Source: Candidatus Eiseniibacteriota bacterium (GTDB lineage: Bacteria > Eisenbacteria > RBG-16-71-46). From it: a DNA stretch of 48,850 nt. The DNA lies in contig JBGPFC010000031.1 of assembly GCA_041483195.1 (NCBI GenBank), forward strand, positions 1-48,850, in the 5' to 3' direction. The notes below the pieces were generated by a model that saw only the letters and a list, made by a program, of their open reading frames with translations, was not told the DNA's origin and did no database searches. Position numbers and translations under genes: made by a program. Shown one piece after another: positions 28,132 through 41,583 of this stretch (its first letter is position 1; every line of letters starts with the position of its first letter).

Positions 28132-31100
28132 CTACCTCAGCAACAGCATCTTCCGCTGCTGCGTGAGGCGTCCCAACTCGAGACGGTAGAAGTAGACGCC
28201 GCTTGCCATGCCCCTCACGGTGAGGTCCACCCCGTAACGTCCCGGGGTCTGGCGCTGATTCACCAGCGTCTGCACCACGCGGCCCTGCACGTCGAACAGC
28301 CTGAGCACCACCTGCTGCGTGGACGGGATCGAGTACACGATGCGCGTGTACCCGCGGACCGGGTTCGGGAAGTTCTGCGAGAGCGACAACACGCGTGGCA
28401 CGCTCGTGTCGATCTGCTCGACGCCGACCAGCAGCGAGTCGCTGCCGCCGAACTGATAGTAGCGCGCCGCGAATTCCTGCAGGTACTGGTTGGTGACGTC
28501 GGGATCGTGAATGATGAGCGTGTTCTCGTTGTTCGAGTTTTCCGCGGCGCTCGACCAGTTGTGCGAGCCGGTGAGGGTCACGGCATCCCAGGTCGGATTC
28601 TCCGCGTCGAACAGGCAGTACTTGTGGTGGAGCAGGCCGGAGGCCCCGGTCTTCAGGCGAATGTCCACCCCGTTCCCGAGCAGATACGAGTACTGCGATC
28701 CGGCGTCGGAGCTGGCGTCGAGATCGCCGCGCACCTTGATGCTCGCCAGGTGCCTGGCCACCAGCGCCGCCGAGATGTCGGTGCGCGTCAGCGTCAGCAG
28801 CTGGAACCCGATCGAGTGCTGCGCTGCGTTGATCCTCGAGATGATCTGAGAGGTCGGGGCGTCGGACGGGCTGAAGTAGCTCTCCACGTCGTGCCCACCG
28901 ATCACGAACTTGTGCGGCGTGTCGTCGAGCTTGCGGGCGCCGAACCGCGACGCGGCTGCATTCGGCGTGTCGGTGCCGCTCCCCCACATCTCGTTGAACT
29001 CGAGGGTGTACGCGTTCGCCAGCGCCAGGTCCTGGACTTCGATCGAGTTCTGGAAGTCGCTGTTGGTGCCGGGGTCGGTCGGGTTCCATGAGCCGGTCCA
29101 CACCCACGCGCTCTCGGCCGCGCCACCGCGCCCGTCGATGACGAAGAACTTGTTGTGCATCAGCCCGAGCCCGTTGTTGGTGGCGTCGAAGCGGTCGGTG
29201 ATCAGCGGAATGCCGCCGCCGCTGATCGCGGTGAAGCCGGAGCCGGTCTTGTTGTCCTCCTCGCAGATGACCCGCACCTTCACGCCCCGGTTCTTCGCGT
29301 TGATCAGCGCGGTGGCGAGCGTGCCGCCCGGAGTGCCGCTCAGGCTGTAGATCGCGGCATCGATCGAACGCTGCGCGTTGTCGAGGCGCGGCACCAGCCT
29401 CGCCGGGAGGTCCTGGTTGCCGTTCGCGGCATGAAGCCACGCGACGCTCGTGTTCACGCTCTTGTTGAAGTACACGTTCATCTGCCCGCTCGACTGCGCG
29501 GGCGATGCGGTGCTGAACAACCGCGCCGGGGCGAAGTTGACGCCGTTCACGTCCTCCGAGCCCACGCTGTAGTCGTACACCGTGGCGGGCGTGAGGCCGG
29601 TCACCGTCACCGCGTGGACCGTCACCGGCGTGGAATCGACGGCGCTGTCGCCGAGCGCGAGCGTGAGTCCGTAGCGGACGATGCTCGAGGACGCGACGTC
29701 GGTGGTCCAATGCAGCTGCACCGAGGTCGGCAGGATGTGGTCCTCGTATGGGGTCGTGAGAATGATCGGACCCGGGTGGGCGATGATGTCGGTCGAATCC
29801 CGCGGCGCGATCTCGTAGTCCGCGGTGTAGGGCGGGCCCGGCGCGGGCGTGCCGGGCTTGAACTGCTTCAGGATCCCGATCACGTCGAAGACGCTCGGCA
29901 CCGGCGGGAACGACGTCGGAATGAAGATGTTGGTGGTGCCGGATGGGTCGGTAATGGTCGACGTGGTCGAGTTGTAGGTCGCCCCGTCGATGCGGATCAG
30001 CCGCCCCTCGTTGGGCTCGGTGTAGTCGGGGTGGAAGGTGGCGGTGACTTCCGCGCAGGTGAGCACCAGGGGTTCGGGGATCGGGCGCCCGGTCGCGTGC
30101 CTCACGAGCAGCGAGAAGTCGGGCTGAAGCTCCGTGATGCCGCGGAACTGAGCAATCGAGCCGGTCACGGTGAGACTGTCGCCCGGCTGGATCGAGAACG
30201 GCGGCAGGTCAAAGCTGAAGATGTCGATCCCGGCGGTGCCATCCTGCAGGTAGAGATCGGTTCGGACGCTGCTCAGGTTGGCGGTGACGACGCCGGTCAC
30301 GGTGGCCTCGGCGCCCGGCGCGTAAGGAGAGGCGGCAACGCCGGAGGCGTCGTTCACGTGCACGACGACGATCGGCACCAGCTCGAGCACGCGCACGTGC
30401 GGATACACGAGAATCTGCGTGAGCGTTCCCGAGGCGACCGCGGTCTTCACCGCGAAGGTGGAGTTCCCGCTCGTGGGCGGCGAGGTGAGGTTCGCGATGG
30501 TGACGCTGCCGCTGTCGGCTGTGCTCAGCGTCGCCGAGGCGATGAACAGCGTGTCGCCGGCGATGGTCGGCGTCGCGCTCGCGAAGCCCGGCCCGCTCAG
30601 CACCACCGACCCCACGTCGTGCGACCACGTCCAGTCGGACGGCACGATGATCGAGAGGTTGGTGAGCGTGTACGTCGAGTCCTGCCCGAAGGCGATCTTC
30701 AGCGAATCGAGCGAGCGGCTGGTATACACGCTCACCGGCGCGATGCTCGCGCGCCCGGTTCCGTTTCCTCCCACCACGAAAGTCGGCTCCGGCGGATTGG
30801 AGCTGTTCTGCGGATTGCGGCCGTGGGTCTGGGTGACATAGTCGGCGGAATTGTTGTTCGTGTCCTGCCCGTTCCCGAGCAACTGGTGCGCTCCCCCGGC
30901 CGCAAGCGAATCGGCGGTGGACGTGGATATCGCCTTGCGCTCGACGCTGTTTCCGTTCGCGCTGATGCCGTGGTTCGGCGCGGCCGAGCCCTCGGGATTG
31001 ACCGCCGTACCCCAGCCCACCTTGTCCACCTCGACGGCGGACGTGTCGATCATGCGCTCGTGGCCGTTGTCGGCCATACCCTGTCCCGATCCCCACAACC

Positions 31101-31452
31101 CCGAGGTGTAGTCCGGGGTAGCCGAACTCGAGTACGTGCCAGCACTGTTGACGAGCAGGAAGAACCCGTGCGCCGCGATGGACGAATTCGCCGGCAGAAT
31201 CGCGCGGTCGCTCCAGGTGGTGCCATTGGTCGCCGCCGAGTACTGGAGCTTCCAGCCGGAGATGTCGATCGCGTTGTCGGTGGGGTTGTAAAGCTCGACG
31301 AATTCATCCGTGGCGGACGACGGGCCGCGCGTGGCGAACTCGCTGATCACGACGTGATTCGCGACGGCTCCCGCGGGGGGAACCACGGCCAGCATCAGGG
31401 CTGGGATCGCGAGCATGGCGAGAGCGCTGGAAAGGCGTGGCAGGAAGCGCAT
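28132..31452 (-). CDS. Secreted multidomain PLD-superfamily protein (lamin-tail domain, OB-like, Fn3-like, two HKD motifs, T9SS-type C-terminal domain); probable nuclease or phospholipase
   Basis: VVISEF..DEFVELYNPT; HNKFFVID and HHKYCLFD; QNFPNP...ASGVYFYRL. Confidence 0.88.
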   Translation of the reverse strand: MRFLPRLSSALAMLAIPALMLAVVPPAGAVANHVVISEFATRGPSSATDEFVELYNPTDNAIDISGWKLQYSAATNGTTWSDRAILPANSSIAAHGFFLLVNSAGTYSSSATPDYTSGLWGSGQGMADNGHERMIDTSAVEVDKVGWGTAVNPEGSAAPNHGISANGNSVERKAISTSTADSLAAGGAHQLLGNGQDTNNNSADYVTQTHGRNPQNSSNPPEPTFVVGGNGTGRASIAPVSVYTSRSLDSLKIAFGQDSTYTLTNLSIIVPSDWTWSHDVGSVVLSGPGFASATPTIAGDTLFIASATLSTADSGSVTIANLTSPPTSGNSTFAVKTAVASGTLTQILVYPHVRVLELVPIVVVHVNDASGVAASPYAPGAEATVTGVVTANLSSVRTDLYLQDGTAGIDIFSFDLPPFSIQPGDSLTVTGSIAQFRGITELQPDFSLLVRHATGRPIPEPLVLTCAEVTATFHPDYTEPNEGRLIRIDGATYNSTTSTITDPSGTTNIFIPTSFPPVPSVFDVIGILKQFKPGTPAPGPPYTADYEIAPRDSTDIIAHPGPIILTTPYEDHILPTSVQLHWTTDVASSSIVRYGLTLALGDSAVDSTPVTVHAVTVTGLTPATVYDYSVGSEDVNGVNFAPARLFSTASPAQSSGQMNVYFNKSVNTSVAWLHAANGNQDLPARLVPRLDNAQRSIDAAIYSLSGTPGGTLATALINAKNRGVKVRVICEEDNKTGSGFTAISGGGIPLITDRFDATNNGLGLMHNKFFVIDGRGGAAESAWVWTGSWNPTDPGTNSDFQNSIEVQDLALANAYTLEFNEMWGSGTDTPNAAASRFGARKLDDTPHKFVIGGHDVESYFSPSDAPTSQIISRINAAQHSIGFQLLTLTRTDISAALVARHLASIKVRGDLDASSDAGSQYSYLLGNGVDIRLKTGASGLLHHKYCLFDAENPTWDAVTLTGSHNWSSAAENSNNENTLIIHDPDVTNQYLQEFAARYYQFGGSDSLLVGVEQIDTSVPRVLSLSQNFPNPVRGYTRIVYSIPSTQQVVLRLFDVQGRVVQTLVNQRQTPGRYGVDLTVRGMASGVYFYRLELGRLTQQRKMLLLR

Positions 31453-31543
31453 GGAAGCTCCGCTCGAGGGATGGGAAATGCATCCGGGTTGTTGATCGAG
31501 CGTATCACGCGAACCGGAGCCCGGACTAGCGCAGCCTCGCATG

Positions 31544-31926: not shown

Positions 31927-32011
31927 GTCCATCCATTGGGTGCCATCGCAGACGCGGCACCGCTCCAATTCGCTGTGGCCGAGCGCCTTCGGGGGATGTG
32001 CGAAGCGGCGC

Positions 32012-32040
32012 TTGCGCGAATCGCCCGTTCCGCCGATACT
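32012..32040 (+). promoter_or_regulatory. Sigma70 promoter of csp copy 1
   Basis: TTGCGC-17 bp-GATACT, conserved in all three copies. Confidence 0.75.
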
Positions 32041-32046
32041 GCTCCC

Positions 32047-32234
32047 GTCTACCGGTTGCCGTCGATGTGCCGCGAAGCGCCTTCTGATGCCGCCAGGTTG
32101 ATCCGGCGGCATTTTTGTTGGCCGCGCGGCTCTCGCGAATCGGAGACATCGGTCAGAGTGACCGAATCGTGGCCGCCACGTTCAGGCGGAGTTACTGCAA
32201 CCCTCGGGTCGCAGGTTACGCAAGGAGCAGTTCA
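32047..32234 (+). ncRNA. Conserved structured 5' leader of csp copy 1 (5' end approximate)
   Basis: Four hairpins shared with copies 2 and 3, the first followed by a U-tract. Confidence 0.65.
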
Positions 32235-32435
32235 GTGGCTATCGGAACCGTGAAGTGGTTCAACGAGGCGAAGGGTTTCGGCTTCATCTCCCAGGAAGGT
32301 GGCGAGGACGTGTTCGTCCATTTCTCCACGATCCAGGGCGACGGCTTCAAGACTCTGGCCGAAGGCGAGAAGGTGGAATTCGACGTGACGCGTGGGCCGA
32401 AGGGTCTGCAGGCGGCGAACGTCCGCAAGGCCTAG
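32235..32435 (+). CDS. cspA: Cold-shock protein, copy 1
   Basis: AAGGAG RBS; GTG start; KWFN, KGFGFI (RNP1), DVFVHF (RNP2); 66 aa. Confidence 0.97.
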
Positions 32436-32462
32436 GTCGTCTCGAGGAATCACCTCGCATCT

Positions 32463-32501
32463 AGAGGGCGGCGAGCTTCTGCTCCCGCCCTCTGTTGTTT
32501 T
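32463..32501 (+). terminator. Intrinsic terminator
   Basis: AGAGGGCGG...CCGCCCTCT stem followed by GTTGTTTT. Confidence 0.8.
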
Positions 32502-32550
32502 GGGGCCGCGCGACGGTCCGGACACCCGTCGCGCGGCCGCCTCACGTCCC

Positions 32551-33886: not shown

Positions 33887-35047
33887 GTGCTCCTGGGTTC
33901 GAACACCTTCGGCATGCGGCTCGACGGAATCGCCGCCTATGCTCCCGACCAGGTCTGGAGCAACGGGCGCGTGGCTGCCCGCCTCCGCCTCGAGCGCATG
34001 CGCCTGCGCGAACGCAGGAGCCATGACGGTGCCGAACCGCTGACCGCGGAAGAGGCCAAGCTCTTCCAGAGCAGCGATCGCTGGGTGCGCCGATTCATCG
34101 GGTTCAACGAGCGACGCTTCGCCTGCGACGGAACGGGAACCATCGATCTCGCCACCCGCGCGGCGCGACAGCTGTTCGAGGGTTCCGGCCACTCCCCCGC
34201 CGACATCGACGGCATCATCGTGGGCAGCGTGACGCCCTCCTACCTCTACAGCCCACCGGACGCGGCGTTGCTCCAGGACGCGCTGGGCGTTCCGGTCTGG
34301 CAGGGAACGACGCCGCGCGAGATCAAGGGCGCAGACGTGTCGCTCGCGTGCAGCACCTGGGTCACCTCGCTGATGCTCTGCTACGCCCTGATCCGCTCCG
34401 GGATGGCGCGACGCATCCTCCTGATCGGCGCCGACCGGATGAGCGCCACCATCAACTGGCGGGACCGAAGCTTCGCGACCGTGCTGGGTGACGCCGGCAC
34501 CGCCACGCTGTGCACGGCGGTCGCGGAGGACGAAGACTGGTTCGCGCCATCGCGATTCTGGAGCTGGCTCGACGGCGGCCAGGCGGAGATGATCCGCACC
34601 CCGGTCGGAGGCTCGAGATTTCCCTCGCCGTCTCCCGAGGAGCTCGATGCCGGCAAGCACCGGCTCGCGATGGACGGCGCGGCGGTGCGCCAGGTGCTGG
34701 TTCCCTTCGTCGGCGGGCCTGCGATGGAAGCGGCGCTCGCCAAGGCGGCCTGGAATTTCGGCGACCTCGATGCCGCGGTGCTGCACGAGGCCAACCCGAT
34801 GCTCAACGAGTCCATCGTCCGCACCTGGCGCGAGCACGGATTCCGCGGCCGGGTGGTGACCGCCGGCGGCCGGTTCGGCAACACGACCAGCGCTTCCATT
34901 CCGCTCGCGCTGGCGTTGCATGCGTCGGAGCTGGCGATCGGCACGCGTCTCGGGATGGTCGGATTCGGCGGCGGGCTCTCCGCGAGCTTCGCGTTCGCCA
35001 CCGTTCGCCACGCGCTCAGGTCGTGGACGAACCTGGCCGAAGGCTGA
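33887..35047 (+). CDS. 3-oxoacyl-ACP synthase III (FabH-like) family protein
   Basis: Cys-His-Asn triad (LACS, LHEAN, FGNTTSASIP); GFGGGL; start uncertain. Confidence 0.88.
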   Translation: MLLGSNTFGMRLDGIAAYAPDQVWSNGRVAARLRLERMRLRERRSHDGAEPLTAEEAKLFQSSDRWVRRFIGFNERRFACDGTGTIDLATRAARQLFEGSGHSPADIDGIIVGSVTPSYLYSPPDAALLQDALGVPVWQGTTPREIKGADVSLACSTWVTSLMLCYALIRSGMARRILLIGADRMSATINWRDRSFATVLGDAGTATLCTAVAEDEDWFAPSRFWSWLDGGQAEMIRTPVGGSRFPSPSPEELDAGKHRLAMDGAAVRQVLVPFVGGPAMEAALAKAAWNFGDLDAAVLHEANPMLNESIVRTWREHGFRGRVVTAGGRFGNTTSASIPLALALHASELAIGTRLGMVGFGGGLSASFAFATVRHALRSWTNLAEG

Positions 35048-35163: not shown

Positions 35164-35350
35164 GTCTTCCGGTTGCCGTGGATGTGCTGCCAAGCGCCTT
35201 CAGATGCCGCCAGGTTGATCTGGCGGCTTTTTCGTTGGCCGGGCCACCTTCCCGATCGGAGACACCGGTCAGAGTGACCGAATCGTAGCCGCCACGTTGG
35301 GCGGAGAAACTGCGATCGCAAGGTCGCATGTCAATCGAAGGAGCAGCACA
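35164..35350 (+). ncRNA. Conserved structured 5' leader of csp copy 2 (5' end approximate)
   Basis: Same four hairpins; GCCGCCAG/CTGGCGGC stem plus TTTTT. Confidence 0.65.
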
Positions 35351-35551
35351 GTGGCTAGTGGAACCGTGAAGTGGTTCAACGAGGCGAAGGGTTTCGGCTT
35401 CATCTCTCAGGAAGGTGGCGAGGACGTGTTCGTCCATTTCTCCACCATCCAGGGTGACGGCTTCAAGACCCTGGCCGAAGGCGAGCGCGTCGAGTTCGAA
35501 GTGACCCGTGGGCCCAAGGGCCTGCAGACGTCGAGCGTCCGCAAGGCTTAG
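35351..35551 (+). CDS. cspA: Cold-shock protein, copy 2
   Basis: RNP1 and RNP2 motifs; 60/66 aa identical to copy 1 by manual count. Confidence 0.97.
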
Positions 35552-35578: not shown

Positions 35579-35619
35579 GAGGGCGGCGAGCTTCGGCTCG
35601 CCGCCCTCTGTTGTTTTTT
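35579..35619 (+). terminator. Intrinsic terminator
   Basis: Perfect 13-bp stem, cUUCGg loop, then TGTTGTTTTTT. Confidence 0.9.
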
Positions 35620-41194: not shown

Positions 41195-41382
41195 GTTCGC
41201 TGGTTGCCGTGGATGTGCCGCAAAGCGCGTTCTGATGCCGCCAGGATGATCTGGCGGTTTTTTTGTTGGGCGCGCGGCTCATGGCAATCGGGGACACCGG
41301 TCAGAGTGACCGAATCGTCGCCGCCACGTTCAGGCGGAGTTGCCGCGACTCTCGGGTCGCGGGTTACGCAAGGAGCAGCACA
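41195..41382 (+). ncRNA. Conserved structured 5' leader of csp copy 3 (5' end approximate)
   Basis: Same four hairpins; GCCGCCAG/CTGGCGGT stem plus T-tract. Confidence 0.65.
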
Positions 41383-41583
41383 GTGGCTACTGGAACCGTG
41401 AAGTGGTTCAACGAGGCGAAGGGTTTCGGATTTATCACCCAGGAAGGTGGCGAGGACGTGTTCGTCCACTTCTCCGCGATTCAGGGTGAGGGGTTCAAGA
41501 CCCTGGCCGAAGGCGAGAAGCTGGAGTTCGATGTCACCAAGGGCCCGAAGGGCCTGCAGGCGGCAAACGTCCGCAAGGCCTAG
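41383..41583 (+). CDS. cspA: Cold-shock protein, copy 3
   Basis: RNP1 and RNP2 motifs; 60/66 aa identical to copy 1 by manual count. Confidence 0.97.

Follow-up and report, generated by a model that had tools for sequence, protein, structure and literature searches.

The stretch of DNA analyzed in this study, 48,850 nucleotides (nt) of contig JBGPFC010000031.1 from a Candidatus Eiseniibacteriota genome (hereafter the window), carries three genes for cold-shock proteins (csp genes, Csp proteins) on the plus strand, with starts at positions 32235, 35351 and 41383, each of them located behind a leader of approximately 188 nt. Per-column identity among the three leaders is 88%. A previous evaluation of the letters alone, referred to as the sequence-only reading, had interpreted these leaders as a structured cis-regulatory RNA with an internal terminator. 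By means of a covariance model (R1; 193 positions and 34 pairs, built from 14 leaders), the structured leader was found in 85 of the 89 genomes from the family to which the window belongs, with one to five copies each, indicating that its conservation goes beyond the similarity of paralogues. Its hairpin P2, together with the U-tract directly behind it, may represent a conditional intrinsic terminator. The csp1 locus and the two further copies comprise the following features:

32012–32040, plus strand: promoter-like element of csp1, consisting of TTGCGC (32012–32017), a 17-nt spacer and GATACT (32035–32040)
32047–32234, plus strand: csp1 leader RNA, beginning with the inferred 5′ end (GUCUAC...) and ending directly ahead of GUG; R1 matches 32040–32237 with 141.6 bits
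32222–32237, plus strand: ribosome-binding site AAGGAG (32222–32227) and GUG start codon (32235–32237), read from the sequence
32235–32435, plus strand: csp1 coding sequence, 66 amino acids (Pfam CSD, PF00313, 103 bits)
32463–32503, plus strand: hairpin resembling a terminator, followed by a GUUGUUUUGG tail, at the 3′ end of csp1; read from the sequence
35164–35350, plus strand: second leader copy (R1, 140.7 bits), with P2 at 35206–35227, flagged by a terminator scan
41195–41382, plus strand: third leader copy (R1, 146 bits), with P2 at 41237–41258, flagged by a terminator scan

Start codons were recorded for 83 model hits featuring an in-frame csp open reading frame (50 of A3, 33 of A4), being GUG in 80, UUG in two and AUG in one of them (L199); the two UUG cases, L169 and L206, represent one place fetched twice. 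In nearly all csp homologues, translation starts with GUG, which is followed by GC, the starts in the window occupying positions 32235–32237, 35351–35353 and 41383–41385.

Fold and covariation of the leader

Six helices of the leader are backed by covariation, namely P1, P1a/P1b, P2, P3, P4 and P5. The 5′ half of the leader constitutes one long 5′-terminal hairpin (the rod), composed of P1, P1a/P1b and P2, with P2 at its tip, and is followed in order by P3, P4 and P5, and then by AAGGAG and the GUG start codon. The sequence-only reading had missed P1, the long-range helix by which the 5′ half becomes a single rod. In the csp1 copy, the elements are positioned as follows:

32047–32057, plus strand: 5′ strand of P1, GUCU-A-CCGGUU (GUCU-N-CCGGUU across leaders), pairing with 32138–32147; present in the minimum-free-energy fold
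32058–32088, plus strand: 5′ strand of P1a/P1b, with GCCGCG (32069–32074) and the (G)GAUGUGC box, which is conserved; partner strand located behind the U-tract
32089–32110, plus strand: P2, the terminator-like tip hairpin, GCCGCCAGG, loop UUGAU, CCGGCGGC; read from the sequence and from covariation in divergent copies
32111–32121, plus strand: U-tract and tail (AUUUUUGUUGG), directly after P2
32122–32137, plus strand: 3′ strand of P1b/P1a, including CGCGGC (32125–32130); from the fold and complementarity
32138–32147, plus strand: 3′ strand of P1, AAUCGGAGAC; from the minimum-free-energy fold and covariation
32150–32164, plus strand: hairpin P3, CGGUCA, loop GAG, UGACCG (CGGTCAGAGTGACCG)
32173–32189, plus strand: hairpin P4, CCGCC, loop ACGUUCA, GGCGG; in the divergent set, 6 of 6 pairs with changes on both sides
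32195–32214, plus strand: hairpin P5, located 5′ of the ribosome-binding site, with a variable stem sequence; 6 of 6 pairs changed on both sides

Among the 50 top hits of R1, 92.9% of the alignment cells pair and 12 of the 34 pairs have changed on both sides, with P2 being invariant. For the 40 divergent hits, 91.1% of the cells pair, compared to at most 46.0% when the pairing was slid; 26 of the 34 pairs have changed on both sides, and none of 500 shuffles came up to this result. Since both alignments had been fitted to the model, the pair count was repeated for 66 diverse 5′ domains that MAFFT had aligned by sequence only. In this alignment, 87.6% of the cells pair, sliding gave at most 47.5%, both sides have changed in 15 of 22 pairs and, again, none of 500 shuffles came up to these values. 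The proposal of covarying hairpins was thereby corroborated. An all-against-all covariation screen of the alignment columns, addressing additional helices and pseudoknots, yielded only noise beyond the known helices.

Individual helices contribute to these counts in different ways. In P1, seven of nine pairs have changed on both sides, and in the leaders grouped with those of the window, a C inserted into the 5′ strand has its counterpart in a G inserted into the 3′ strand. P2 occurs in divergent copies as CCGUCC/GGACGG, CCGCAGG/CCUGCGG or CCGCCGG/CCGGCGG, four of seven pairs having changed on both sides. For P3, U-A was replaced by C-G in 10–11 sequences and G-C by A-U in one; in the divergent set, three of its six pairs show changes on both sides. 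The sequence-only reading had described the hairpins P3, P4 and P5 from the three window copies, and its description was accurate: P3 is identical in all three, the loop of P4 varies in length, being one base shorter in the 35-kb copy, and the stem next to the ribosome-binding site alternates between CTGC/GCAG and CCGC/GCGG, with its loop changing from CTCG to GCAA. GCCGC, the 5′ arm of P4, has complements both in its own 3′ arm and in GUGGC at the csp start codon, so that an alternative pairing hiding the start codon is conceivable.

The segments TGCCGT and TGCYGC upstream of P2 had been proposed to act as an antiterminator by pairing with the 3′ arm of this hairpin. This pairing was not borne out, as the upstream segment is variable and complementary to the segment following the U-tract, together with which it constitutes P1a/P1b. 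Partner examples are GCCGCCC/GGGCGGC, CGCGUGC/GCACGCG and GCUGCCCAC/GUGGGUGGC, and GCCGCG/CGCGGC in csp1. The native duplexes have a mean energy of −16.0 kcal/mol, compared to −12.5 kcal/mol when partners were swapped between leaders (native lower in 59 of 76) and −11.5 kcal/mol for shuffled partners (native lower in 67 of 76). A small hairpin within the same region, GUGC...GCGU, received weak and mixed support and was dropped in favor of the pairing with the segment behind the U-tract. Likewise, a 5′ hairpin, GUCU...AGAU, predicted in many nascent RNAs, is not kept in the window's own leader group.

The (G)GAUGUGC box, which lies between P1 and P1b in the 5′ strand of the rod (32058–32068), is kept in the leaders of csp, helicase and hydroxylase genes (see below); it reads GGAAGUGC in family f11, and the opposite strand is variable. 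The box may represent a protein or tertiary contact. A leader peptide starting from the AUG in GGAUGUG was judged unlikely by eye, considering that a ribosome-binding site is lacking and that the changes in P2 loop length are not multiples of three.

The 5′ end of the RNA was deduced from the promoter. In 81 homologous leaders, the best −10 hexamer was GATACT in 25, GATAGT in 13 and GATATT in six cases; the spacer is 17 nt long in 57 of these leaders, and 6 nt separate the end of the −10 element from the G of GUCUUC in 54. The transcription start assumed at 32047 in the sequence-only reading fits this conserved TTGCGC-N17-GATACT arrangement, and a simple sigma-70 scan under a stricter rule called no site at the csp1 promoter. 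The position of the −10 element places the first transcribed base inside P1, and the 5′ end of the leader is therefore base-paired.

Distribution and downstream genes

Within a sample of 151 genomes of the phylum, R1 matched 89 genomes from four families only (f1, 56 of 59; f2, 2 of 3; f3, 6 of 6, a count that takes in the unpublished genome G038; f11, 24 of 32), and none of 50 genomes from the other 13 families sampled. R1 also detected a fourth leader copy in the window's genome, located on another contig (C7, 19276–19466). A BLAST-type search recovered three copies in this genome and weak matches in 9 of 60 relatives, the latter lying upstream of csp wherever the csp motif was readable. Furthermore, the leader was found ahead of csp in two public Candidatus Eisenbacteria records. 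A wide pattern scan of genome contigs proved too loose for G+C-rich genomes, returning at least 120 stretches, with csp behind three loci among the matches listed, and yielded no distribution beyond the phylum.

The window's genome encodes six cold-shock-domain genes, four of them featuring the leader. Of the other two, one, on contig C20 of G000 (58814–59002, minus strand, L221), encodes a cold-shock domain fused to a Cys-rich N-terminal extension resembling a zinc ribbon (CxxC...CxxC) and is devoid of the leader motif. The second, on contig C5 of G000 (110432–110617, minus strand, L223), is a divergent csp gene that starts with AUG, has a short leader lacking the motif and may be a constitutive paralogue.

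Comparison of the whole window (48,850 bases, both strands) with Rfam 15 yielded no match at gathering score. When loose thresholds were applied to 31950–32520, the cspA thermoregulator RF01766 reached 68.7 bits compared to its gathering score of 78, and all other matches had E-values of at least 1. The RF01766 alignment spans 32165–32496, which is mainly coding sequence, and P1, P2 and the U-tract lie outside of it. In the literature searched, which lay mostly outside subscription journals, no RNA motif in Eisenbacteria was described among the matches listed, nor was a csp leader containing an intrinsic terminator.

A csp open reading frame is located directly behind all 50 top hits and 35 of the 40 divergent hits, that is, behind 85 of 90 model hits. 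A second covariance model, R2, representing the 5′ domain, gave 18 further hits; in the window's own genome it found the four csp copies only. The remaining five divergent hits and eight of the 18 further R2 hits constitute 13 loci without csp in 12 genomes of relatives (L212–L216, L229–L233, L235, L243 and L244), a gene set that had escaped the sequence-only reading. At these loci, the 5′ domain precedes either a DEAD-box helicase gene alone or a gene for a 205-amino-acid membrane protein followed by the helicase gene. Pfam was run on one example per gene type, with the others being assigned by near-identical N-termini and one locus being cut short: the helicase example matched DEAD (PF00270, 166 bits) and Helicase_C (117.8 bits), and the membrane protein example matched FA_hydroxylase (PF04116) with 33 bits, just over the cut-off of 31. 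The helicase and hydroxylase leaders have the promoter, the rod and P3 in common with the csp leaders and lack P4 and P5. As the rod and P3 precede both csp and the helicase/hydroxylase loci, they can be regarded as a portable module marking a cold-shock-type gene set or regulon, cold induction being assumed from other bacteria.

The portability of the 5′ domain also bears on the question of which RNA is the functional product. The main product could be a short terminated RNA of approximately 70 nt (5′ hairpin region, P2 and U-tail), acting in trans as a Csp decoy or base-pairing small RNA, with the csp mRNA being a read-through by-product. The part up to the U-tract is indeed the most conserved one and is portable between gene classes, and a hairpin with a U-tail corresponds to small-RNA architecture. 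However, the downstream gene was checked for 108 hits and was always a cold-shock-type gene on the same strand, directly behind the element, with no stand-alone copy among them; the stretch behind the U-tract and that preceding P2 covary, which is relevant in read-through RNA only; and no Hfq gene was found in the genome, which is 96.8% complete. A predominantly trans-acting RNA thus appears very unlikely.

At 33887–35047 on the plus strand, directly 5′ of the second csp gene, the window carries a FabH-like 3-oxoacyl-ACP synthase III gene (PF08545 and PF08541), flanked on both sides by csp genes with the leader. The minus strand encodes, at 28132–31542, a large protein predicted to be secreted, in which PLD-like, lamin-tail and fibronectin-type domains are combined with a C-terminal sorting tail for Por secretion.

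Evidence for and against termination at P2

The sequence-only reading had noted a GC-rich hairpin followed by a U-tract in all three window leaders and had considered it terminator-like; both statements agree with the wider set of homologs. In the window, the P2 stem is followed by AUUUUUGUU in csp1, by TTTTTCGTTG in the 35-kb copy and by TTTTTTTGTTG in the 41-kb copy. The P2 hairpins of the latter two were flagged by the terminator scan, and that of csp1, which has an A bulge or A·C mismatch, was not. P2 comprises 7–9 bp, has a mean energy of −13.7 kcal/mol across 77 leaders and corresponds to the hairpin of an intrinsic terminator (at least 5 bp, G+C-rich, short loop). The 8 nt after P2 contain at least five U in 69 and at least four U in 74 of these leaders, the overall U content of the leaders being 21.5%. 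In predicted nascent transcripts, P2 forms with a probability above 0.9 in 55 of 77 cases. Moreover, the design of a hairpin plus GUUGUUUU seen in P2 is also found at the csp genes' own 3′ ends, where the hairpin of the 35-kb copy equivalent to that of csp1 (35579–35608) was flagged by the terminator scan.

Based on this evidence, we infer that P2 and the U-tract act as a conditional intrinsic terminator in a cis-acting cold-shock leader, relieved by cold and/or by Csp, and we assign a probability of approximately 0.5 to this interpretation. Transcription would start at or next to the G of GUCUUC, and after approximately 45–65 nt the nascent RNA would fold P2, with the U-tract directly behind it completing an intrinsic terminator. 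By default, many polymerases would stop there, giving rise to an RNA of approximately 70 nt. In the cold, read-through would increase, as release at intrinsic terminators would be less efficient at lower temperature, and Csp bound to the nascent single strand would hinder hairpin formation and thereby increase read-through as well. The read-through RNA would then fold the 5′-terminal rod and, subsequently, P3 to P5, leaving the ribosome-binding site free, and the full leader fold probably also sets mRNA stability and translation.

Precedents for the individual steps are available. Csp proteins were described to lower intrinsic termination in E. coli (PMC9765468, in its available text). The leaders of E. 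coli cspA, cspB, cspG and deaD are presented as conditional premature terminators operating via Rho, with temperature and CspA as the controlling factors (PMC12360218, which cites Delaleau et al. 2024, according to the available part of the former). For Thermus aquaticus RNA polymerase, intrinsic termination was reported to rise linearly with temperature between 40 and 80 °C (bioRxiv 10.64898/2025.12.25.696493, available text), suggesting that the leader terminator could open in the cold by itself.

The E. coli precedent concerns the same gene set, csp and deaD (PMC12360218, as far as its text is available), and a Rho gene is present in the window's genome (PF07497, 123.8 bits). Termination in the leader might accordingly be Rho-dependent, P2 and the U-tract then being a structural part of a temperature-sensitive fold. 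However, the leader, with approximately 60% G+C, is almost fully paired in the model and offers little unstructured C-rich RNA for Rho loading, and hairpin and U-tract already make up a complete intrinsic signal. Rho dependence is the least probable of the explanations considered; it and a trans-acting RNA of approximately 70 nt are both less likely than an intrinsic terminator or the post-transcriptional mechanism discussed below.

Several results weigh against a conditional intrinsic terminator. No conserved competitor or antiterminator helix for P2 was found in the 77 predicted nascent RNAs, and any regulation would therefore have to originate in the physics of the terminator itself or in a protein. 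P2 is nearly sequence-invariant among close relatives; simple terminators rarely are, and the near-invariance may point to an additional constraint, for example protein binding. The polymerase for which the temperature dependence of termination was reported (see above) is that of a thermophile. Two of 81 leaders carry P2 without the U-tract, and five of 81 lack P2 (L181, L182 and L183 from G063 and G064, L200 from G004 and L202 from G022). The latter five are devoid of the whole insert of P1a/P1b, P2 and U-tract, P1 being a simple hairpin over a loop of 4–6 nt (a longer, unrelated insert takes the place of this short loop in L200), and P3 to P5 are kept. The P2 module is hence dispensable, and, judging from these sequences, the terminator module appears to have been acquired or lost as a whole. 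The autoregulation known for Csp proteins is negative, and relief of termination at P2 by Csp would represent positive feedback.

In 24 RNA runs, each covering 0.15–0.18 of the query, the assembled contigs matched mostly the conserved csp coding sequence of many organisms, and such contigs carry no readable RNA 3′ ends, which limits the case for the terminator. A single 199-nt contig from a soil RNA library (run X3) spans 32064–32258 with 28 differences and represents a relative's leader joined to the coding sequence; such leaders thus occur in RNA libraries, and nothing more follows from it. The summed contig depth was 25.5 over P2 compared to 2.8 over the rest of the leader, a difference that is uninformative regarding termination because depth is summed across organisms and conservation is highest at P2.

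The invariance of P2 and the persistence of the remaining structure in leaders devoid of P2 would also be expected if the leader acted after transcription, as a thermoswitch or stabilizer. The rod would then guard the mRNA from 5′-end-dependent decay and keep the leader translatable, more so in the cold, and the U-rich stretch (UUUUUGUU) by P2, together with the 5′ GUCUUC, would provide Csp sites at which accumulated Csp opens the rod and shuts expression off. In line with this idea, the first transcribed base lies inside P1, so that the 5′ end is paired, the rod is backed by covariation and partner-specific complementarity, and an invariant P2 is expected of a protein site. Comparable cases are the long S. 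aureus hairpin whose UUUGUUU motif is a binding site of CspA (PMC8034633) and the Listeria cspA thermosensor, which follows the same logic (PMC8079631), as described in the available text of both sources. However, no conserved fold sequestering the ribosome-binding site was found in the leader predictions. The predicted unpaired probability of the ribosome-binding-site window, calculated for 37 of 70 csp leaders, was slightly lower in the cold (0.44 at 10 °C compared to 0.51 at 37 °C), with 5 of 37 leaders being more open in the cold; being equilibrium predictions and blind to a kinetic switch, these values neither support nor exclude a stabilizer, and they speak against the terminator model, too. 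In addition, the helicase and hydroxylase leaders have the rod and P3 in combination with other ribosome-binding-site regions, and a GC-rich hairpin followed by 5–7 U would be hard to keep in a leader of this base composition without termination. We regard a purely post-transcriptional role as the main rival of the terminator model, though clearly less probable than the latter. It can be compatible with a conditional intrinsic terminator, as the two may form two layers of one leader.

A more far-reaching, and in our estimation unlikely, version of the terminator model would dispense with a dedicated sensor. The promoter-proximal intrinsic terminator itself, through weaker polymerase release at falling temperature, would be the cold sensor of the regulon, so that csp, DEAD-box helicase and lipid-modifying genes would open together upon cold shock; Csp translated from the read-through RNA would reinforce read-through, and the abundant RNA of approximately 70 nt would buffer free Csp and thus set a threshold.

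Comparison with known systems

Cold-shock control by csp leaders is known in detail in few cultured bacteria, namely E. coli, S. aureus and Listeria, and Rho-mediated premature termination is a recent addition to it in E. coli. If the terminator model is true, the principle would be extended to a candidate phylum without a cultured member and to another termination mechanism, the intrinsic terminator. The compact and strongly covarying RNA family of approximately 120–190 nt is suited for RNA catalogues and would aid the annotation of cold-shock regulons (csp, DEAD-box helicase and FA-hydroxylase-family genes) in metagenome-assembled genomes. Moreover, the element is small and self-contained and hence directly testable in vitro.

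Regarding the sequence element itself, the cold box of E. coli, a 5′ box common to cold-shock genes, is comparable to the element described here. RF01766, the 5′ untranslated region of E. coli cspA, likewise is a long structured leader of a major cold-shock protein gene; unlike a member of that family, the Eisenbacteria leader remains below the gathering score, with an alignment consisting mainly of coding sequence.

The S. aureus cspB and cspC thermoswitches (Catalan-Moreno et al. 2021, PMC8034633, available text) resemble the leaders of this study in having a long leader hairpin, in being common to paralogous csp genes and in featuring a U-rich motif of the UUUGUU type, which was proposed to be a CspA contact in S. 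aureus. In contrast to those switches, no mutually exclusive fold hiding the ribosome-binding site was found here, the sequences are unrelated, and the U-rich motif follows a GC-rich hairpin in the manner of a terminator instead of residing in a hairpin loop.

Classical attenuators and transcriptional riboswitches also have an intrinsic terminator between promoter and coding sequence. They differ from the leaders studied here, in which no conserved antiterminator helix, leader peptide or junction resembling a ligand pocket was identified.

Antitermination by Csp proteins at intrinsic terminators, described for CspD at small-RNA terminators and for CspA, CspC and CspE at metY-rpsO (Morita et al. 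2022, PMC9765468, available text), supplies the trans-acting activity which the terminator model needs, namely that Csp bound to nascent RNA lowers hairpin-dependent termination. The terminators in these cases belong to other genes, and a terminator in the own leader of a csp gene is not among the cases described in the available text of that article.

The closest likeness exists to the Rho switches of E. coli cspA, cspB, cspG and deaD (PMC12360218, available text), in which a conditional premature stop is borne by the leader and governs csp and DEAD-box helicase genes, with refolding of the leader and feedback by Csp as proposed inputs. In contrast to these switches, the putative stop signal in the Eisenbacteria leaders has the form of a canonical intrinsic terminator (hairpin and U-tract) and not of a Rut (Rho utilization) site, its regulation is predicted, sequence and structural homology is absent, and the host belongs to a different phylum. 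New compared to Rfam and the literature searched are the leader family, its fold and the proposed use of an intrinsic terminator. Known in kind are structured csp leaders in which transcription ends prematurely and which control csp together with a DEAD-box helicase gene.

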